Shown piece by piece: positions 5,190 through 22,121 of a stretch of DNA of 24,000 nt. Under the pieces are notes generated by a model. The model ran no database searches, was not told the origin of the DNA, and was given only the letters and a program-made list of their open reading frames with translations. Every line of letters starts with the position of its first letter. Positions within the stretch are counted from its first letter, which is position 1. The stretch is from an uncultured Candidatus Saccharibacteria bacterium (GTDB lineage: Bacteria; Patescibacteriota; Minisyncoccia; Phycocordibacterales; UBA2100). The position numbers and the translations under genes were made by a program. The stretch is from positions 20,607 through 44,606 of the forward strand of contig CAYIJV010000001.1 of the NCBI GenBank assembly GCA_964363895.1, given 5' to 3'.

Positions 5190-5825
5190 ATGGCAATTCT
5201 TACAAAGAAGGAAATACTCGATCGCGTAAAAAGCGGGAATATCGCGTTCTACCCAGGTCTCGACCGCTTCCAATTACAGATGCATGCTGTCGATCTTCGC
5301 CTTGGCTTTACTTTTCTCATTCCAAAGGTCTGGAAGATGACATCAAAGGGGCGACAGGCGCTCTCGATCGATCCCCTGAAGGATCATGGACCGGAGTATT
5401 TTGATGTTATTGAGCTTGAGCAAGGGCAGTGTTTTGAATTGTTGCCGCAGGAGTACGTGCTGGTCTCGACATTCGAGACGATCAAGGTGCCAAATGACTT
5501 GATGGCGGTCTTGTACCCGCGCTCATCGGTGAATCGTAAGGGGCTTTCCGTCGACCTGACAGGCATCATCGATTCCGGCTACGAGGGACCGCTCACGCTT
5601 CCTATACGCAACAACACGCGCTCGCAAACTATCCAGTTGCACCCGGGCGAAAGATTTTGTCAGATCGTCTTTGAGGAGCTGAAACACAAAATCGAACCGC
5701 AAAAAAGTCGCTGGCATCAGAAAGATGTGGTGGAGAAGGGGAAGAAGGAGAAATCAGCCGAAATGAAACTCGTGTTTAGCGGCGATCTCAAAAAATTAAA
5801 GTCTGATTTTTCGGCTCTCGAATAA
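5190..5825 (+). CDS. dcd: dCTP deaminase/dUTPase-superfamily protein (Dcd-like; deaminase Glu not conserved)
   Basis: Dcd-type N-terminus (ILTKKEILDRV...VDLRLG), PRSSVNRKGL, GIIDSGYEGPLTLPIRN. Pro138 (CCT, 5601-5603) occupies the column of the catalytic Glu of E. coli Dcd and M. jannaschii DCD-DUT. Lys-rich C-terminal tail. Confidence 0.65.
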   Translation: MAILTKKEILDRVKSGNIAFYPGLDRFQLQMHAVDLRLGFTFLIPKVWKMTSKGRQALSIDPLKDHGPEYFDVIELEQGQCFELLPQEYVLVSTFETIKVPNDLMAVLYPRSSVNRKGLSVDLTGIIDSGYEGPLTLPIRNNTRSQTIQLHPGERFCQIVFEELKHKIEPQKSRWHQKDVVEKGKKEKSAEMKLVFSGDLKKLKSDFSALE

Positions 5826-6346: not shown

Positions 6347-7374
6347 TGCGACATGCTCTTCAGGACTTTGAGGTACAAATTCTCGACGATTTTTTGCTGT
6401 GCTTTGCCGGTTTTTACGTAGTGATCCAAGCCAGGCGCCGCATTGATCTCGATGACCCAATATTGGGCGGGCTTATTGGTGATACTTCCTTCTATCATAA
6501 GGTCAACGCCGCAAAGTCGCAGGCCCATATCTTTTGTCAGCTTGACAGCGATGTTCTTAAATTCCGGATGGATTTCTTTTGTCACATCGATCGAATCGCC
6601 GCCGGAGGATAGATTTGCGTTGTCTAAGAGATACACACGCTCTCCTCGAACGGGGACGGAGCGCATGTTCATTTTTTTGCGTTTCAACTTGTTGGCAATA
6701 CGCGGATCATCAATCTTTATTTGCGTGTCACGGCTCGAGGCAAGAAATTCGCGTGCCTTTTTTGTGAGTAGCTGTCGGACAGTTGAACGTCCATTGCCTG
6801 CGACATTTAATGGTATTCGCTCATACGCGGAAATCACCGCCTTATCCAAAACTACAATCCGATAATCTCTTCCGTGCACAGGCTTCTGAATCAAGGCGAT
6901 CTTATCGTTTCGAAATATATATTTCATCGCGCGCAAAAACTCTTGTTTGTTGTGTACGAGCGAGATGCCAACGCCCTGGCTTCCGCTATTTGGCTTCATA
7001 ATGACGGGGAAGCCGAGTTTTTTCGCATAGCGATATCCAGCATCTATGTTGCGATATGAACCGATCGTTTTACACCACTCGTCTGAAAAGAATGCTTTGC
7101 CGGGAATGGTCGGGTATCCCATGCGGCGCATGAAAAAGGTTGCATAGTCTTTGTCTTTCGAAATGTCCGCCGATCCGACAGGGTTGAGATCGACGGTGTT
7201 GTAACGGAAGTAGCGATGTATGCCGGCCTTACCCGCTTTTGCTGGGTAACGGATCTGGCCCGCAATCTGCCAATTCGGCTCCAGTGTTACTCGCGCACCA
7301 ATGCGGGTGGCGAGTCTTTTGAGCATTTTCGCAAGGACGAGGCGTTCGGGTTTTCTCTTCATGTGCGGTATCAT
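6343..7374 (-). CDS. ATP-grasp ligase related to the cyanophycin synthetase / GshF ATP-grasp domain (stand-alone)
   Basis: FPVIMKPNSGSQGVGISLV, DYRIVVLDKAVISAYERIPLNVAGNGRSTV, NLSSGGDSIDVTKEIHPEF and VIEINAAPGL resemble CphA G-domain strings (recalled). No Mur-ligase-like domain follows. An alternative start is at 7362. Confidence 0.7.
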   Translation of the reverse strand: MIPHMKRKPERLVLAKMLKRLATRIGARVTLEPNWQIAGQIRYPAKAGKAGIHRYFRYNTVDLNPVGSADISKDKDYATFFMRRMGYPTIPGKAFFSDEWCKTIGSYRNIDAGYRYAKKLGFPVIMKPNSGSQGVGISLVHNKQEFLRAMKYIFRNDKIALIQKPVHGRDYRIVVLDKAVISAYERIPLNVAGNGRSTVRQLLTKKAREFLASSRDTQIKIDDPRIANKLKRKKMNMRSVPVRGERVYLLDNANLSSGGDSIDVTKEIHPEFKNIAVKLTKDMGLRLCGVDLMIEGSITNKPAQYWVIEINAAPGLDHYVKTGKAQQKIVENLYLKVLKSMSH

Positions 7375-7431: not shown

Positions 7432-10419
7432 ATGGTAAATCGAATTGCAGTCTCCACAAAGATATCCGACGCGCGAGCGCAAAGTTATCTCCACACTTTG
7501 CAAACAAGGTTTCCTGAAAGCGGCTTGAAGGCCGCTTCTCTCGTACAGGTGTATACCGTTGATGCGAAACTTTCGGCCGCTGAACTAGATACTGCCGCGC
7601 AACGTCTCACGAATCAGATCACGGAAATGTACTCCACGGAAGATGTACCGACTCCGGTGTTGTACGCATACGCGATAGAAATCGGGTTTTTGCCCGGTGT
7701 AACCGATAATGTCGGAAAGACAGCGCGGCAAACGATCGAGGATTGTTTGGATCGCTCACTCAAAGAAGGTGAGGATGTTTATTCTTCAAAGACTCTTTTC
7801 CTCGATGGAGCAATTACCGCTCGCGATGTAGCAACAATGGCACATGAACTCCACAACCCGCTCATCGAGCGGGCTTCTGTCTTTTCTAAAGCGGAGAGTG
7901 GAGGAGATTTTCCGATCGTAGTTCCGAAAGTGTCTCTGATGAAAGTCGTCGGGACGGATGAAGTCGATCTCGGTGTAAGCGATGCGGAACTTCTAAAAAT
8001 TGGAAAAGAGGGAATTGCGGACAAATGCCTGCCTGCCGGTAGGCAGGGCACGCGCCGGGGTCCTCTCTCACTTTCTCTGCGCGCTCTCAAAATAATCCGT
8101 GGCCACTTCGAGAAAGTTGGTCGGAACCCTACAGACGTAGAATTGGAATCATTGGCACAGACGTGGTCTGAGCATTGCAAGCACACGATCTTTGCTGATC
8201 CGTTGGATGAGGTCAAAGAAGGGATCTATCGTCGTTACATCAAGGGGGCGACAAAAAGAATCCGAAAACAAAAGGGCAAGAAAGATTTCTGCGTTTCCGT
8301 ATTTAAAGATAATTCTGGCGCGATCGCATTCGATAAAGAATATCTCATTACGCATAAAGTGGAGACACATAATTCTCCATCGGCACTTGATCCGTTCGGA
8401 GGGTCAGTCACTGCGATCGTCGGGGTCAATCGGGATTGTCTGGGCTTTGGGCTTGGTGCGAAGCCGATAGCAAATACATACGGATTTTTCGTAGCAAGCC
8501 CAGAAGACCGGAGAGAATTCTTCCGTGATAAAAAGAAAAAGCAACAGCTCCTGCCCGCGCGAAGAATTCTTGAAGGTGTTATTCACGGCATCAACGCTGG
8601 CGGAAATGAAAGCGGTATCCCGACGTCCTTGGGATTTGTGGCGGTAGATCCGAGCTTCCGCGGGAAGCCGCTGGTCTTTGGCGGGACCGTCGGCCTCATT
8701 CCCCGTAGCGGAAGAAGTTCGCTACGGGGCAAGCCTCGCAATCTTCACGAGAAGTGTGCCGAGCCGGGAGATTACATCGTGATGATAGGCGGTCGTGTCG
8801 GACTCGACGGCATTCATGGTGCGACGTTCTCTTCCGAATCGCTTGCCTCGGGAAGCCCTGCGACAGCGGTGCAAATTGGCGATCCAATTACACAAAAGAA
8901 ACTCTCTGACGCGCTTATTCGCGAAGCGCGCGACAAGGGATTGTACTCGAGCATAACCGACAACGGCGCTGGCGGACTTTCGGGTTCGGTAGGGGAGATG
9001 GCAAAAGAGAGCGGAGGATGTGAAGTAGATTTGGATACAGTCCCGCTAAAATACCCGGGGCTCGCTCCGTGGCAGATTTGGCTTTCGGAATCGCAAGAGC
9101 GCATGACGTTGTCTGTGCCAAAAAAGAATTGGACAGCACTTAAGAAAATCTTTGACCGACATGATGTGGAGGCTACAAAGATCGGAACATTCACGAATTC
9201 AGGCAAATGTGTTGTTCGTGCAAAAGGGCATGTCGTGATGGACGTGGAGCTCGCATTTCTCCACGATGGTCGCCCAATCGAAAAACAAAAGACTAAAAAA
9301 GTTACCCATGTTTTTCCCGAAGTATCGAATCGGGCGCGAAATATAGAATTGGGCCAATTGATGCTTGATGTCTTGGCACGACCGAATGTCGGTTCGATCT
9401 CCTTCATTTCAGAGCAATATGATCATGAAGTTCAGGGGACATCTGTCACGAAACCGCTCCATGGTAGGGGGCGTGTAAACGCGGACTCTGCAGTTCTGCA
9501 GCCTGTACCCAGTTCTTCTCGCGGCATCGTTCTTTCATACGGGTATTGTCCGTGGTATTCGCAGATTGATACCTACGCAATGGCTGCTGCGTCCATCGAT
9601 ACTGCCGTTCGTAACGCGATTTGCGCAGGAGCTTCCCGCGATTATCTCGCTATTCTGGATAACTTTTGCTGGTCATCTTCGGAGAAGCAAGAGCGATTGT
9701 GGGAGCTGAAACAGGCAGCAAAAGCGTGCTACGACATCGCGACTGCATACGGCACGCCGTTTATTTCGGGCAAGGATAGTATGTTCAATGATTTCCGCGG
9801 ATACACAGAAAAAGGCGAATCTGTGCATATAGCGGCTCTCCCCACGCTTCTCGTTTCCGCAATCGGTGTTATTCCAGATGTTTCAAAAGCAATAACTCTT
9901 GATTTCAAGCGCGCGGGCGATTTTGTGTATCTTATCGGAGAAACACATGACGAGCTTGGCGGATCGGAATACTACGCTCTCGCTAATCAAATCGGTAAAG
10001 AAGCTCCTGTCGTTAATGCAAAAAAGAACGCAAAGGCATACGATGCACTCGCTAAAACTATTCAAGACGAGCTCGTTGTTTCCGCTATTGGAGTAGGAAG
10101 GGGGGGTCTTGCCGTGGCACTCGCGAAATCGGCAATCGCGGGCCAGCTCGGCGCGAGTTTGGACTTACGAAGTCTGAAGGGGGGCGCGAAGGAGGCTGAT
10201 GCAATACTGTTTTCTGAAAGTCAGGGACGCATGCTGGTCTCGGTGAGGCGATCGGCTCAGAAGTACTTTGAGAAAACGTTTAAAGGTATTCCTCTCGCGA
10301 ACATTGGAGAAGTGACGCAATCGGCATCAGTATCGATTTTGCTGCCGAACACAAAGCTCGAAATCTCCCTCTCCGCGCTTACAGATTCGTATCGGTCGTT
10401 CTTTAAAAACTGGTCATAA
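7432..10419 (+). CDS. purL: Phosphoribosylformylglycinamidine synthase subunit PurL with fused tandem PurS-like N-terminal region
   Basis: PurL core motifs AQTWSEHCKH, VETHNSPSALDPFGG, GRVGLDGIHGATFSS, DNGAGGLSGSVGEMA, SESQERM. At 995 aa it is longer than the roughly 740-aa small PurL. The first ~165 aa contain two PurS-like repeats ending in RLTNQITEMY and ELHNPLIERA. Confidence 0.9.
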   Translation: MVNRIAVSTKISDARAQSYLHTLQTRFPESGLKAASLVQVYTVDAKLSAAELDTAAQRLTNQITEMYSTEDVPTPVLYAYAIEIGFLPGVTDNVGKTARQTIEDCLDRSLKEGEDVYSSKTLFLDGAITARDVATMAHELHNPLIERASVFSKAESGGDFPIVVPKVSLMKVVGTDEVDLGVSDAELLKIGKEGIADKCLPAGRQGTRRGPLSLSLRALKIIRGHFEKVGRNPTDVELESLAQTWSEHCKHTIFADPLDEVKEGIYRRYIKGATKRIRKQKGKKDFCVSVFKDNSGAIAFDKEYLITHKVETHNSPSALDPFGGSVTAIVGVNRDCLGFGLGAKPIANTYGFFVASPEDRREFFRDKKKKQQLLPARRILEGVIHGINAGGNESGIPTSLGFVAVDPSFRGKPLVFGGTVGLIPRSGRSSLRGKPRNLHEKCAEPGDYIVMIGGRVGLDGIHGATFSSESLASGSPATAVQIGDPITQKKLSDALIREARDKGLYSSITDNGAGGLSGSVGEMAKESGGCEVDLDTVPLKYPGLAPWQIWLSESQERMTLSVPKKNWTALKKIFDRHDVEATKIGTFTNSGKCVVRAKGHVVMDVELAFLHDGRPIEKQKTKKVTHVFPEVSNRARNIELGQLMLDVLARPNVGSISFISEQYDHEVQGTSVTKPLHGRGRVNADSAVLQPVPSSSRGIVLSYGYCPWYSQIDTYAMAAASIDTAVRNAICAGASRDYLAILDNFCWSSSEKQERLWELKQAAKACYDIATAYGTPFISGKDSMFNDFRGYTEKGESVHIAALPTLLVSAIGVIPDVSKAITLDFKRAGDFVYLIGETHDELGGSEYYALANQIGKEAPVVNAKKNAKAYDALAKTIQDELVVSAIGVGRGGLAVALAKSAIAGQLGASLDLRSLKGGAKEADAILFSESQGRMLVSVRRSAQKYFEKTFKGIPLANIGEVTQSASVSILLPNTKLEISLSALTDSYRSFFKNWS
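8027..8050. repeat. GC-rich hairpin element copy A (GCCTGCCTGC-cggt-AGGCAGGGCA), in frame within purL
   Basis: A 7-bp stem, 8028-8034 pairing with 8041-8047. Both 10-mers recur in the same order at 14256-14277 in purB. Encodes CLPAGRQG. Confidence 0.6.
8701..8729. repeat. Perfect 10-bp-stem hairpin (CCCCGTAGCG-n9-CGCTACGGGG), in frame within purL
   Basis: Arms 8701-8710 and 8720-8729 are exact reverse complements. It encodes PRSGRSSLRG in a loop that is about 9-10 aa longer than in B. subtilis PurL (recalled). Confidence 0.55.
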
Positions 10420-10741: not shown

Positions 10742-11514
10742 AAAGGCCTCATGTCATAATTTTCTCCGGCCATGGTCTCAATACCGAGGATGAGACCAAG
10801 ACAGCGTTTGAGTCGGTCGGCGCAACAGCCGATATTATTCACATCAACGACATAATCGCCAGACCGGCGATTCTTGATACGGCGCAGATCATTGTATTTC
10901 CGGGCGGATTTTCGTACGGGGATGACACCGGTTCGGGGAAGGCATATGGCAATCGAGTAAAACAGCATCTTGGTGGTGCAATAGAGAAATTCCTTGCGCG
11001 CGACACGCTGATGGTAGGTATCTGTAATGGTTTTCAAATCATTACGAGCGCGGGAATTTTGCCGGGTGCTCTCATCGCAAATGATTCGGCCCGCTATTCA
11101 TGTAGATGGGTGGATCTGGAGGTAAAGAACGACAGCCCGTGGCTCAAGGGAATAAAGACGATGTCTGTGCCCATTGCACACGGGGAGGGGAAATATTATG
11201 CGCCACATGAGACACTCGAAGTTCTAAAAAAAGAGAACGCGATTGCTCTGCGGTATGTCGAAGGTGAGACCTCGAAACACTTCGATATGCCGGCAAATCC
11301 AAATGGTTCGCTCCAAAATATTGCGGGCATTACCGGATACAACGGACGTGTATTGGGGCTTATGCCTCATCCTGAACGCGCCGTACGCTTCATTCAATTA
11401 CCTCACTGGACCCACCAGCGTGAGGAGTATGTGCGGCAAGGCCGGGCCTTGCCGTCAGAAGGGTCGGGGCTTCAGTTATTCAAAAATGCGGTACACTACT
11501 TTCATGATAAATAA
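10738..11514 (+). CDS. purQ: Phosphoribosylformylglycinamidine synthase, glutaminase subunit PurQ
   Basis: Class-I amidotransferase triad context: GICNGFQ (Cys nucleophile), MPHPER. Confidence 0.9.
   Translation: MKRPHVIIFSGHGLNTEDETKTAFESVGATADIIHINDIIARPAILDTAQIIVFPGGFSYGDDTGSGKAYGNRVKQHLGGAIEKFLARDTLMVGICNGFQIITSAGILPGALIANDSARYSCRWVDLEVKNDSPWLKGIKTMSVPIAHGEGKYYAPHETLEVLKKENAIALRYVEGETSKHFDMPANPNGSLQNIAGITGYNGRVLGLMPHPERAVRFIQLPHWTHQREEYVRQGRALPSEGSGLQLFKNAVHYFHDK
11435..11453. repeat. 19-nt perfect palindrome GGCAAGGCC-g-GGCCTTGCC inside purQ
   Basis: Exact 9-bp arms. It encodes RQGRALP near the PurQ C-terminus. Confidence 0.5.
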
Positions 11515-13074: not shown

Positions 13075-14007
13075 ATGGATATATTGAAAGAAACTGATTT
13101 CAATTTTCTCGGCCCTAAGAAAACGGGCAAGGTGCGGGATATCTATACGCAAAAAGATCGGCTCATTCTCGTTACGACCGACCGGCACTCTTCTTTCGAC
13201 CGCATCATTGCGCATATTCCATGGAAAGGGCAGGTGTTGAATCAGATCAGTGCGTTTTGGTTTGAACAGACCAAAGACATTGTTCCGAATCATGTGCTTG
13301 CGGTACCTGATCCGAATGTGACGGTGGGCAAAAAGTGCACTATGGTGCCTGTCGAGGCGGTAGTGCGAGGATATCTTACCGGAGTGACAGACACAGCTAT
13401 CTGGACACGGTATTCTGCAGGGAAACGGGATTTTGGTGATGTTGTTCTATCTGATGGCATGAAGAAGAATCAGAAATTACCACACCCTGTTTTTGATCCC
13501 ACGACAAAAGAAGACACGCACGATCGTTCTCTTACGCCGGAACAAATGATTTCCGAAGGATTTATTACCAGTGAATTATTCCAAGAGGTAAAAAAGACCG
13601 CTCTGGCGATCTTCGTACGTGGGCAGGAACTTGCCGCGAAAAGCGGACTCATTTTGGTGGATACAAAATATGAGTTTGGTACAGACGAAAATGGCAGACT
13701 TGTCTTGATCGATGAGATACACACTCCGGATTCATCACGATTCTGGCAGATTGATTCGTACGAGACGCGGTTTGCGGAGGGAGAGGAGCCGCAATATTTC
13801 GATAAGGAATTTCTCCGGCTGTGGTTTAAGGAAAACTGTGATCCATATAAAGATGCGACTCTTCCCGAAGCACCTCCAGAGCTTGTGGAGGAGCTCTCGC
13901 GTCGGTATATTCAGATGTATGAGCAAATCACCGGAAAGAAATTTATACCCGGCGAGACCCCAGTCATTCCGCGCATCGAGCGTAATTTAAGATTATATGC
14001 CGTTTGA
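13075..14007 (+). CDS. purC: SAICAR synthetase (long, Ade1-like form)
   Basis: GKVRDIY, TDRHSSFD, LILVDTKYEFG and IDEIHTPDSSRFW motifs. Confidence 0.9.
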   Translation: MDILKETDFNFLGPKKTGKVRDIYTQKDRLILVTTDRHSSFDRIIAHIPWKGQVLNQISAFWFEQTKDIVPNHVLAVPDPNVTVGKKCTMVPVEAVVRGYLTGVTDTAIWTRYSAGKRDFGDVVLSDGMKKNQKLPHPVFDPTTKEDTHDRSLTPEQMISEGFITSELFQEVKKTALAIFVRGQELAAKSGLILVDTKYEFGTDENGRLVLIDEIHTPDSSRFWQIDSYETRFAEGEEPQYFDKEFLRLWFKENCDPYKDATLPEAPPELVEELSRRYIQMYEQITGKKFIPGETPVIPRIERNLRLYAV

Positions 14008-15421
14008 CCCGCTCACCGCAATAAGTTCTGTTGATGGACGATATCGAGACGTTTCCGCGGCGCTTCTCGAATATTTCAGCGAATACGCACTGATGCGCAA
14101 GCGCATCACCGTTGAGTGCAAATACCTTATAGCACTCTCGGAATGTCCGGAAAGCGGCATTCGTGCTCTGACTACCGAGGAGAAGAAATCTTTGCGTGAA
14201 CTTTCGAAGATCTCGATAGAGGAAGCGGGAATTATCAAGAAAATCGAGAAGGAAGGCCTGCCTGCGCAGGCAGGGCAGGCAGGGTATGAAGGAATTCCAG
14301 CGACGAATCACGATGTAAAGGCGATTGAATACTTTATAAAAGGAAAAATGGCCGGAACTTCACTTAAAGATGTTGCCGAATGGGTGCATTTTGCACTTAC
14401 GTCGGAGGATGTAAACAGCATCGCGCACGGATTCACCTTACGTTCGTCACTTGAGCATATCATCCTACCGGCTATCGAAGAGATCCGAGCACACCTTGAC
14501 GCTCTCGCTAAAGAACATGCAAGTACTCCCATGCTCGCGCGCACGCATGGACAACCGGCATCTCCTACGACCTTTGGCAAGGAGATGCGGGTGTTTGAAG
14601 CGCGCATTGCGCGGCAGTTGGAACAACTCAAAGCTACCAGCATTCTTGTGAAGTTTGCGGGCGCTACGGGGAATTACAACGCGCATGTCGCTGCGGCCCC
14701 AAAAGTAGATTGGCCCGCTTTTGCAAAGAAATTCATAAATAGTTTGAATGATGGCCATGCCGTCCCGATAGAATTGAATGAAGTCACAACACAGATCGAG
14801 CCGCATGATACGTATGCGGAACTCTTCGACAATCTTCGCCGCATCAACACTATTCTCATCGATTTCTCGGAAGATATGTGGCGCTACATAAGCGACGGAT
14901 GGGTAACGCAAAAACCGAAAGAGGGAGAGGTGGGGTCTTCGGCAATGCCGCACAAGGTGAACCCGATTGATTTTGAAAACGCCGAAGGGAATTTTGGAGT
15001 TGCAAACGCACTCTTCGAACACTTTTCGCGCAAGCTTCCAATATCACGCCTCCAGCGCGACCTCTCGGATTCGACGGTTGAGCGCACGTTCGGTACCGCT
15101 TTCGCTCATTCACTCATTGCGTACAAATCACTTTTACGCGGTTTAGGCAAGATAAACGTAAATGCGGGAGCGATGCTCGCGGAACTCCAAGCGCATCCCG
15201 AGGTACTCGCCGAAGCAATTCAGACTGTTCTACGACGCGAGGGCATTTCGGTGCCGTACGAACAGTTAAAAACGCTTACGCGAGGGAAGCAAGTGACGCT
15301 AGAAGATTTCGCAATATTTATAGACACTCTTGCAGTGGATGAAAAAGTAAAAAAACGCCTTAAGGCACTTCGGCCGGAGAATTATATCGGCCTTGCAAGA
15401 GAGATCGCCCGCAATGGTTGA
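13997..15421 (+). CDS. purB: Adenylosuccinate lyase (E. coli-type long form)
   Basis: SSVDGRYRD, TNHDVKAIEYF, HFALTSEDVN, RTHGQPASPTTFGKE, and the signature GSSAMPHKVNPIDFEN. An 11-nt overlap with purC. Confidence 0.92.
   Translation: MPFDPLTAISSVDGRYRDVSAALLEYFSEYALMRKRITVECKYLIALSECPESGIRALTTEEKKSLRELSKISIEEAGIIKKIEKEGLPAQAGQAGYEGIPATNHDVKAIEYFIKGKMAGTSLKDVAEWVHFALTSEDVNSIAHGFTLRSSLEHIILPAIEEIRAHLDALAKEHASTPMLARTHGQPASPTTFGKEMRVFEARIARQLEQLKATSILVKFAGATGNYNAHVAAAPKVDWPAFAKKFINSLNDGHAVPIELNEVTTQIEPHDTYAELFDNLRRINTILIDFSEDMWRYISDGWVTQKPKEGEVGSSAMPHKVNPIDFENAEGNFGVANALFEHFSRKLPISRLQRDLSDSTVERTFGTAFAHSLIAYKSLLRGLGKINVNAGAMLAELQAHPEVLAEAIQTVLRREGISVPYEQLKTLTRGKQVTLEDFAIFIDTLAVDEKVKKRLKALRPENYIGLAREIARNG
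14256..14284. repeat. GC-rich hairpin element copy B (GCCTGCCTGC-gc-AGGCAGGGCA + GGCAGGG), in frame within purB
   Basis: Contains the 18-nt perfect palindrome CCTGCCTGCGCAGGCAGG (14257-14274). It shares both 10-mers with the purL copy and encodes GLPAQAGQAG. Confidence 0.6.
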
Positions 15422-18034: not shown

Positions 18035-18613
18035 TCAAGAAATCTTTCTTTCCCAGTATTCTGCAGAAGCGCTCACATAATCCGCGACCCTGCGCTCTGT
18101 GGCCGCCGCAAAGCGAGTAACGAGGACCTCGCGTTCGCTTTCCGGAGCGCCATGCTTTATCCATGTTTCTACGAGTGCGATTTGGGATGGGTCGGAAAGT
18201 GCGAGGCGGCGGCCTTTGGCCGCCGCGCGCAGAATGGTGGGCCCGCCGATATCGGTCTTCTCAATGACGTCTGCGGGAGTTGCCGATGGGTCGGCTATTG
18301 TTTTTAGAAGAGGGTAGAGTGTTATATATACAAGGTCAATCGGCTCTATATTCAGGCGTTTTAGCTCTGCGAAGTCATCGGGAGTTTCAGCAAGAAGCCC
18401 TGCGTGAATTTCGCGCGAGAGTGTCACGACACGATGTCCGAGGATGGGAGGCCCCACGATCTCGGCTACATCGCGACAGGCGACCTTGTTGTCGTTCAGA
18501 TACTTTGCAGTGCCTGCAGAGCCCAAAAGTGTCCATCCATTTTCACTCAATAATTTTCCAAGCCGTATAAGCTCCTCACCTTTCTCATGCGATGCTAGGA
18601 GGGCTGTTTTCAT
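18035..18613 (-). CDS. purH: IMP cyclohydrolase, stand-alone MGS-like domain (PurH N-terminal domain homologue)
   Basis: ALLASHEKGE, GSAGTAKYL, GHRVVTLSREIHAGLL, LVYITLYP and DIGGPTILRAAAKG match the PurH IMPCH domain. At 192 aa it has no AICAR transformylase domain. Confidence 0.75.
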   Translation of the reverse strand: MKTALLASHEKGEELIRLGKLLSENGWTLLGSAGTAKYLNDNKVACRDVAEIVGPPILGHRVVTLSREIHAGLLAETPDDFAELKRLNIEPIDLVYITLYPLLKTIADPSATPADVIEKTDIGGPTILRAAAKGRRLALSDPSQIALVETWIKHGAPESEREVLVTRFAAATERRVADYVSASAEYWERKIS

Positions 18614-22044: not shown

Positions 22045-22121
22045 AGAGAGGCCGCACATAGTGCGACCGAGCGGCGAGCGAGGAAGTACTGAGGCCAGCA
22101 GGCCGAATGTGCGGCCTCTCT
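22045..22121. terminator. 15-bp perfect inverted repeat with a 47-nt spacer between convergent genes (probable composite bidirectional terminator)
   Basis: AGAGAGGCCGCACAT (22045-22059) and ATGTGCGGCCTCTCT (22107-22121). An inner hairpin GGCCGCAC-ata-GTGCGACC lies at 22050-22068. Confidence 0.45.

Follow-up and report, generated by a model that had tools for sequence, protein, structure and literature searches.

The 24,000-nucleotide stretch analyzed here, called the window at its full length, comes from an uncultured Candidatus Saccharibacteria bacterium and corresponds to C1:20607-44606 of a 662,363-bp genome (G000) in 44 contigs with 49.7% GC. It carries a purL-like gene and a purB gene, and each of them contains a short GC-rich hairpin (Table 1). 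The purL hairpin (window 8027-8050) is GCCTGCCTGC-cggt-AGGCAGGGCA, or GCCTGCCTGCcggtAGGCAGGGCA in full letters, and the purB hairpin (window 14256-14277) is GCCTGCCTGC-gc-AGGCAGGGCA followed by GGCAGG, or GCCTGCCTGCgcAGGCAGGGCA in full letters. We give a probability of about 0.8 to these hairpins both belonging to a family of palindromic insertion elements, GC-rich and very small, with an 18-bp core and a 20-bp sibling form.

Table 1. Host genes, element copies, and further palindromic copies discussed in the text (window coordinates unless a contig or locus handle is given)
Feature	Position	Strand	Description and basis
purL-like host gene, FGAM synthase II type	7432..10419	+	995-aa open reading frame (ORF); Pfam AIRS, AIRS_C, FGAR-AT_linker
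purL lineage-specific 21 nt	8026..8046	+	TGC CTG CCT GCC GGT AGG CAG = CLPAGRQ; codon alignment, 30 congeners
purL copy, 20-nt sibling form	8028..8047	unstranded	CCTGCCTGCCGGTAGGCAGG, 7-8 bp stem; sequence and genome-wide family comparison
purB host gene, adenylosuccinate lyase	13997..15421	+	474-aa ORF; Pfam Lyase_1, ASL_C; PDB match 4nsl, E=1e-128
purB copy, canonical 18-bp perfect palindrome	14257..14274	unstranded	CCTGCCTGCGCAGGCAGG; family comparison, empty site in 26 congeners
purB extra right-arm half copy	14275..14283	+	GCAGGCAGG, adds QAG; comparison with 18-nt fills (L012, L016) and 36-nt nested fill (L010)
GIY-YIG-adjacent element copies	G013 (L061), L141, L150, L219, L151, G140 (L292), G115 (L293), G309 (L294), G006 (L348, L349), G037 (L350, L351)		
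30-nt unit copies, second family	G000: C5:33423, C9:27659, C10:22514, C13:730, C23:5143		outside the window

The hairpin family in purL, purB, and other genes

An earlier note on this DNA had claimed that purL and purB have two 10-mers in common, in the same order and the same frame, and that such a match lies beyond chance. Both sites are confirmed. The gapped pattern GCCTGCCTGC-gap-AGGCAGGGCA matches twice in the window, once in each gene, and in none of 100 dinucleotide-preserving shuffles. The left arms of both copies are read xxC-CTG-CCT-GCx, leading to CLPAGRQG in purL and to GLPAQAGQAG in purB, and the RNA fold of the purL site has an energy of -13.8 kcal/mol. In the whole genome (662 kb), GCCTGCCTGC occurs 15 times, against about one expected occurrence, and in an unbiased k-mer count CCTGCCTGCGCA and CCTGCCTGCGCAGG lead all 12- and 14-mers. 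The hairpin core described in the note is indeed shared by the two genes, but the unit of the family is better defined as the perfect 18-bp palindrome CCTGCCTGCGCAGGCAGG, present in about 10 copies in the genome, the purL copy being a 20-nt sibling with a CCGG(T) center.

When copies are strictly defined as CCTGCC-N2-10-GGCAGG, all 11 of those in this genome lie inside ORFs of 252-996 aa, on either strand, and all 11 open in the LP(A/T/V) frame relative to the gene. The 18-nt forms are read through as LPAQAG (with variants LPTQAG and LPVQAG), and longer forms as LPAGRQG and similar peptides. Besides purL and purB, the hosts are rnc (RNase III), valS (ValRS), dnaG, uvrA, an ftsQ-like gene, a PBP1A gene, and a gene for a solute-binding protein. 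Hence, the idea of a miniature palindromic element that colonizes coding sequence in frame is supported: the 18-mer supplies the leading 12- and 14-mers of the genome, about 10 copies are found in other genes in the same frame, and orthologues of filled genes show exact 18-nt gaps.

The 20-bp sibling has the form CCTGCCTGCC-GG(C/T)AGGCAGG. The 20-mer CCTGCCTGCCGGTAGGCAGG and its perfect-palindrome form CCTGCCTGCCGGCAGGCAGG are present in 16 of 41 related genomes, with no hit for the reversed control, and these forms are a propagating sibling subfamily. Nested copies also occur (L010, L051, and L075), and the lengths of inserts in genes are always multiples of three (18, 27, or 36 nt). In this genome no full-length parent element with CCTGCCTGC...GCAGGCAGG ends was found; single arms are scattered and unpaired.

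Insertion sites, recurrence, and reading frame

In purB, the 18-mer is read C-CTG-CCT-GCG-CAG-GCA-GG, giving (G)LPAQAG, and is placed between bases 2 and 3 of a Gly codon; EGLPAQAGQAGYEGIPATNHDVK is the peptide stretch spanning the junction of the LPAQAG insert. Among 30 congeners, 26 have the empty site GAR-GGN-TAY, and four are filled at the same bond, GG^N. G060 has a fill of 18 nt, G048 one of the same length but with a single substitution, this genome one of 27 nt, and G017 one of 36 nt, where a second, diverged copy is nested at the center. By comparison with the other fills, the extra 9 nt of this genome are a tandem duplication of the 9-nt arm, specific to it. In purL the segment is found in this genome only, again among 30 congeners, and consists of 21 nt in place of one GAY (Asp) codon, for a net gain of 18 nt or 6 aa. 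The residues are thus not ancestral, since 26 of 30 congeneric PurB proteins and 29 of 30 PurL proteins lack them. The purB insert loop, just before TNHDVKA, is missing from the solved PurB structures, and the site is a tolerant loop. Some inserts of the family lie beside conserved motifs (TNHDVKA, ERLEFLGD, and WCISRQ..GH.IP).

The same contrast between filled and empty sites extends to other genes. The host ORFs of 58 copies from relatives were searched against this genome, which gave at least 12 clean pairs where the orthologue of this genome has an exact 6-aa gap; two insertion sites are common to more than one species. Removal of the 18 nt restores the orthologous codon (CG^C versus CGC, GA^C versus GAC, GG^T versus GGT, TT^C versus TTT), which indicates that there is neither target duplication nor loss of flanking bases. 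Indeed, no target-site duplication is found at any filled-versus-empty pair or flanking any copy. In the genes of this genus, the block is placed between codon positions 2 and 3 and splits the codon as xR^Y. Among genic copies, the preceding base is a purine in 88% of the cases and the following base a pyrimidine in 80%. Because the R^Y split falls after codon base 2, xRC preserves the residue that was there before, and LPAQA followed by GGY (Gly) is added. The element therefore enters DNA as a clean block, usually between a purine and a pyrimidine. Hairpin loops were considered as a general target and rejected, since in 59 of the 68 genic copies and in 43 of the 49 non-genic ones the flanks lengthen the palindrome by only 0-1 bp.

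These comparisons leave next to no probability for the shared sequence being ancestral, or a match due to chance or composition. Short GC-rich repeats can arise by chance, which is the one point for such an explanation, and it is refuted by the shuffles (none of 100 gives two matches), by the orthologues without the segment, and by the reversed-sequence control, with 0 hits in more than 440 genomes. In addition, the codons within the inserts stay the same where synonymous sites in the flanks differ. An artefact of assembly or library construction, such as an adapter or a chimera, has an equally negligible probability. Palindromes can cause artefacts and all data are from metagenome-assembled genomes (MAGs), but the same clean in-frame insertion is found in assemblies that many studies produced independently, there are variants with point mutations and nested ones, and orthologous sites are in some cases shared between species.

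The four fills of the purB codon allow one to ask how often this site was hit. After removal of the insert columns, a PurB tree places every one of the four carriers with empty genes and not with other carriers, so that four changes are needed, and two of the carriers are sisters of an empty gene with 100/100 support. Constraining the four to one clade costs 216 log-likelihood units and is rejected by the approximately unbiased test (p=2e-129). The flanks of the carriers differ at synonymous sites, and yet the inserts are identical at 17-18 of 18 positions. Since the carriers are non-monophyletic and near-identical inserts stand in diverged flanks, repeated and fairly recent hits at a preferred site are favored for this codon, and one ancient insertion is less likely.

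The reading frame of the copies is strongly skewed. Among 162 distinct exact copies, the dominant ORFs of at least 250 aa read the palindrome as LPAQAG, PACAGR, and xCLRRQx in the ratio 56:9:4, and all frames verified by homology are the LPAQAG frame. Several of the off-frame copies precede the first ATG, in the 5′ leader; a few (L157, L165, L192, and L210) do lie within the gene and show that insertion is not frame-locked. A perfect palindrome cannot sense the direction of a gene. Target preference was rejected as the cause of the skew, because a flank model built from non-genic copies and applied to the coding sequence of this genome predicts shares of 0.29, 0.38, and 0.33 for the three frames. 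Both rare frames bring in TGC for Cys, which at 0.92% is less frequent than any other residue, and AGG, which makes up 3.7 of every thousand codons, and the LPAQAG frame is made of ordinary codons and loop-friendly residues. As target preference leaves the skew unexplained, selection on the peptide is suggested: the constancy of the frame seems best explained by selection on the translated peptide, and the inserts are probably translated and filtered in this way. A programmed bypass, or any other non-translation of the insert, was also rejected, since the flanking codons do not pair as take-off and landing sites and all lengths are multiples of three.

A different role for selection would be that LPAQAG is a convergent peptide motif with a function at the protein level. 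The peptide is found in many proteins, and in loops, as one would expect of such a motif. This origin is nevertheless highly improbable, given that the nucleotides are identical at all synonymous positions and form a perfect palindrome that is also present in spacers, tRNA fragments, and repeats resembling MITEs, the miniature inverted-repeat type of transposable element. Moreover, the hosts are unrelated cytoplasmic and membrane proteins, and the element is missing from most relatives.

Under the reading of the two hairpins as insertion elements, a trans-acting enzyme that recognizes the hairpin would copy the element to new sites, without awareness of frame. Selection would then remove the copies in the PACAGR and xCLRRQx frames, which bring Cys and the rare AGG codon, as well as copies outside tolerant surface loops. 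What is left would be selfish or neutral DNA, translated but without host function, and the six added amino acids are presumably harmless. The anatomy of the element, its insertion polymorphism, and the selective filter are the solid part of this case.

Distribution and candidate mobilizing enzymes

With at most one mismatch, the 18-mer is found in 12 of 24 genomes of the same genus (1-10 copies each) and in 2 of 16 other families of the order, the reversed control giving none in either set. The exact 18-mer is found in 10 of 401 genomes of an even phylum sample, most of these having several (2-15 copies), and in at least 113 stretches when one genome is taken per prokaryotic species. Among the matches listed, most belong to the ultra-small bacteria of the candidate phyla radiation (CPR), with WWE3, Microgenomates groups, Paceibacterota groups, Saccharibacteria, Dojkabacteria, and others, and a few to MAGs of Bacteroidota, where the copies are intergenic. 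Genomes other than the one studied here have at most about 20 copies. In three distant genomes with blooms of the element (G115, G140, and G309), most copies are found between genes, within 5′ leaders, or nested inside hairpin repeats of larger size. This patchy, bloom-like distribution is the pattern expected of a horizontally moving element; patchiness argues against both a vertically inherited sequence and a host-wide mechanism.

Some of the distant copies have particular contexts. Those of Bacteroidota, several of them exact and non-coding, come from a Sphingobacteriales MAG (L146, L128, L182, L188, and L194) and a Saprospiraceae MAG (L120 and L156). A few extend the palindrome slightly (e.g., GTGTTA-18mer-TAACAC in L188) and resemble repetitive extragenic palindromic (REP) sequences rather than genic copies. 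In G004 (L069, L071, L073, L074, and L075), the palindrome lies within a composite, non-coding MITE-like repeat of about 230 nt, with inverted ends ATTCAGC.ATTCCCAG...CTGGGAAT..TGAAT and three internal hairpins, the first of which is the 18-mer; one copy of this repeat has a nested double palindrome. The 18-mer is also found in 25 viral contigs, mostly phage contigs of 58-67% GC with intergenic copies, and these 25 contigs give no clue to the mobilizing enzyme. In one phage contig of 60% GC (L266, with L267 alike), two 18-mers (5704-5721 and 6360-6377) bracket a gene of 208 aa that follows a portal-like gene. Each of them is an intergenic hairpin within a longer inverted repeat, CGCGAAACA-18mer-TGTTTCGCG.

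The best candidate partner of the element would be a cassette with a small, free-standing GIY-YIG nuclease gene at tRNA genes, in which a copy is repeatedly found on the 5′ flank. In 12 cases a copy, of 18 or 20 nt, lies 17-180 nt upstream of a small GIY-YIG ORF of about 85-110 aa (Table 1). Eight of these copies lie around the D-loop and break up an orphan 5′ piece of a tRNA (Gln, Leu twice, Ser) or a 5′ piece that is tRNA-like; in six of the eight an intact tRNA gene comes after the nuclease gene. In these cases the small ORF is found between an element-interrupted orphan fragment and an intact tRNA. In 41 genomes, with about 100 small GIY-YIG genes and about 120 element sites, our own estimate is that about 0.1 adjacencies are expected by chance, and five are seen. 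In G140, the one small GIY-YIG gene is preceded by the element, 20 nt upstream. The small GIY-YIG genes at tRNA genes (Gln, Leu, Ser) look like a tRNA-targeting nuclease cassette spread across distant CPR lineages.

Further details of these loci may be added. The orphan tRNA copies that precede the small GIY-YIG genes (L061, L141, L150, L219, L151, L292, and L348-L350) correspond to the first 10-25 nt of the tRNA. In L296, a small GIY-YIG gene directly follows tRNA-Gln, without palindrome. One of the GIY-YIG genes of the present genome abuts a contig end, and tRNA-Gln is not assembled. An Rfam scan of six recurrent non-coding contexts returned tRNAs only.

The link between element and nuclease is real but may run in any of three directions: the hairpin may be acted on by the nuclease, it may benefit the cassette (e.g., by insulating or stabilizing its transcript), or these leaders may simply be favored targets. 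In its most far-reaching form, the palindrome, the small Slx1/YhbQ-like GIY-YIG gene, and the orphan tRNA 5′ fragment would make up a new mobile module, in which a nuclease and not a transposase spreads or seeds the hairpin, and in which copies in essential genes mark and then protect cut sites. This is a tentative proposal, and rather unlikely as a whole.

A related possibility is that GIY-YIG homing-type nucleases cut these sites and that the copies are the resulting scars, or 'vaccinations', the palindrome being put in at the break and blocking re-cleavage. Such scars would explain the repeated hits on one codon and the choice of essential genes and tRNA fragments as hosts. The purB codon was probably filled on four separate occasions, the hosts are essential genes in which inserts lie next to conserved motifs, the copy directly upstream of GIY-YIG genes interrupts orphan tRNA 5′ fragments at four tRNA types, and in L081, L125, L086, and L044 GIY-YIG ORFs lie 0.4-0.9 kb from genic copies. 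We consider this unlikely all the same, since the source of a constant 18-nt filler is left unexplained, the surroundings of purB and of purL, in 30 congeners each, are free of GIY-YIG genes, a nuclease gene within 2-4 kb is missing for most copies, and in other families copies are mostly intergenic or in 5′ leaders.

The second candidate partner would be a REP-associated tyrosine transposase (RAYT) of the HUH type. Under this explanation the family would be of the REP/REPIN type, moved as a single-stranded hairpin by an HUH/Y1 tyrosine transposase, and its genic copies would be intragenic REPs. The clean insertion of a hairpin without target duplication fits the chemistry of IS200/IS605-type elements, Y1_Tnp genes of about 230 aa are present in 22 of 24 congeners (up to 10 per genome) and are flanked by hairpins of their own, and intragenic REPs are documented, often in uvrA, uvrB, and recB (PMC3733652), the hosts here including uvrA and dnaG. 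Against this, none of 37 Y1_Tnp neighborhoods from 14 genomes has even a 9-nt arm of the element beside the gene (one copy lies 1.3 kb away), G140, which is 100% complete and has 11 copies, gives no Y1_Tnp match, the counts of Y1 genes do not track the copy number of the element, and the canonical 18-mer has no GTAG or CGTC tag. Movement by a RAYT is thus a decidedly unlikely explanation, although a single-strand mechanism that reads the hairpin is a reasonable model even for an element that falls outside the REP/RAYT system.

Several points weigh against the interpretation of the family as mobile elements filtered by selection. Most copies have neither a nuclease nor a transposase gene nearby. 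Precise loss of the palindrome, instead of repeated gain, may contribute to the purB pattern and could account for part of it. Translation of the inserts is deduced from frame and length constraints. Gene calls are stop-to-stop ORFs with homology, and all sequences are from MAGs. As for the nuclease, the GIY-YIG genes adjacent to copies span at least two subfamilies, the counts of GIY-YIG genes correlate only weakly with copy number in the genus, and the two small GIY-YIG genes of this genome are preceded by other hairpins, so that adjacency could just reflect leaders being favored targets.

Relation to known repeats, other palindromes, and significance

In the literature searched, no publication was found with the sequence of the element or with 'LPAQAG', and searches by topic returned only REP sequences, Rickettsia palindromic elements (RPEs), MITEs, and organelle repeats. 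The element thus appears to be undescribed. RPEs, which Ogata et al. reportedly described in 2000, are the closest in behavior, and the earlier note had compared the hairpins with them. According to the passages concerning them in PMC3733652 / PMC10969869, they are in-frame palindromic repeats in coding genes, including essential ones, whose translated residues form loops; they are present or absent among relatives and regarded as selfish DNA. In-frame insertion missing from orthologues is also what is found here. RPEs differ in being about 100-150 bp long and restricted to Rickettsia, whereas the unit described here is a perfect palindrome of 18-20 bp, identical across distant Patescibacteria and presumably unrelated in sequence. 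The comparison therefore stands for behavior (in frame, palindromic, and selfish-looking) but not for family membership, the two being set apart by length and host range.

REP sequences and REPINs, including intragenic REPs, are likewise short GC-rich hairpins, patchy among strains and inserted without target duplication (PMC3733652, PMC3116915), as is the clean 18-nt block. Some of their copies occupy genes for replication and repair, where they are translated (Di Nocera et al. 2013, PMC3733652). Typical REPs differ in being imperfect palindromes of 20-40 bp with a GTAG/CGTC tag, mostly extragenic, in hundreds of copies, and located beside a cognate RAYT (PMC3733652; Bertels & Rainey 2011, PMC3116915). 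The 18-mer and its flanks (R...Y only) have no tag, and the T-variant of the 20-mer has GTAG centrally and not at its foot. Copies number about 10 in this genome, all genic, and at most about 20 elsewhere, those of the genus being genic for the most part, and the cognate gene of a REPtron is absent, with 0 of 37 Y1_Tnp neighborhoods having an arm beside the gene. REPtrons do resemble the loci described above in having a nuclease gene with a copy of a dispersed hairpin directly beside it, but here the nuclease is a small Slx1/YhbQ-like GIY-YIG protein instead of an HUH one, and the copy is on the 5′ side only, usually within an orphan tRNA 5′ fragment. As regards MITEs derived from DDE transposases, the 9-10-nt arms could count as abutted inverted repeats, but there is no duplication and no full-length parent.

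Two other groups of repeats come to mind. Elhai et al. are said to have described in 2008 (Genome Res 18:1484) the small dispersed repeats (SDRs) of heterocystous cyanobacteria, about 20-30 nt long, mobile-like, and divided into families SDR1-7. These very small mobile repeats are reportedly similar in lying inside genes and nested in other repeats, and different in phylum and sequence, and in lacking a single-frame pattern of the LPAQAG type or a link to GIY-YIG genes and tRNAs. The GC clusters of yeast mitochondria and the 'byp' elements of Magnusiomyces are also said to be short, GC-rich, palindromic mobile clusters in the coding sequence of a compact genome, but organellar and longer. The byp elements are bypassed by the ribosome, whereas the frame filter found here implies translation.

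The genome contains other palindromic repeats. A second in-frame family has a 30-nt unit, TCCGCCnnnGGCGGATCCGCCnnnGGCGGA, read (S)A.GGSASGG, and four of its five copies in this genome (Table 1) are in ORFs of at least 138 aa. The copy in C23, in an ORF of 783 aa, fills the same protein loop as the LPAQAG copy of G013, and the PurL proteins of G011 and G042 (L104 and L107) have an SSGGGSASGG insert. In purL itself there is a second hairpin (window 8701-8729, CCCCGTAGCG...CGCTACGGGG), which encodes PRSGRSSLRG. Its loop is 6 aa longer than that of most congeners, others of which hold different inserts (SPAGSRG, RLPRSDLGR, and more), and it seems to be a hotspot for hairpin inserts. Perfect GC-rich hairpins are further found in coding sequence at window 11435-11453 (GGCAAGGCCGGGCCTTGCC) and 18206-18226 (GGCGGCGGCCTTTGGCCGCCGC).

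The genus is rich in RAYT-like HUH/Y1 genes of about 230 aa (e.g., G000:C5:16703-17386; L237-L254), and most of those examined are directly flanked by a distinct hairpin of 13-37 nt, several of them on both sides (ATACAATGAGGTGACACCTCATTGTAT and TATATCAAGGCG(A/T)CGCCT are examples). A repeat of about 50 nt, GCGACCGAGCG.CGAGCGAGGAAGT.CTGAGGCCAGCAGGCCGAATGT, is found in seven places in the genome, including window 22093-22106 (C1:42699), and three of its copies abut runs of N, which are assembly gaps. The motif (A)GTATACCCCGTGAGATA is found in eight places, including window position about 21718 (C1:42324), sometimes as an inverted pair.

What is new in this work is the test of purB non-monophyly, the xR^Y codon rule established against empty sites, and the exclusion of target preference for the frame bias, together with the negative survey of RAYT genes, the 20-mer sibling family, and the GIY-YIG module at several tRNA types with its chance estimate. 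The dominance of one of three reading frames illustrates selection acting on survivors. For the alignment and modeling of CPR proteins, lineage-specific LPAQAG loops should be expected, and these are probably not functional motifs. The element can also serve as a convenient marker when recent gene flow is traced among CPR lineages. For the question of how hairpins are copied, it is a simple system: a single 18-bp sequence inserts cleanly, under a target rule of one base. The association with GIY-YIG genes and tRNAs is a lead to a testable and so far undescribed partnership between a nuclease and a hairpin; if true, no smaller mobile DNA driven by a nuclease would be known than this module, which would also amount to a 'vaccination' against a homing nuclease that arose naturally and in frame. 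If confirmed, the element itself would rank with the smallest units of DNA for which spread within and between genomes is known, and this spread would take place inside essential genes of the bacteria with the most reduced genomes.

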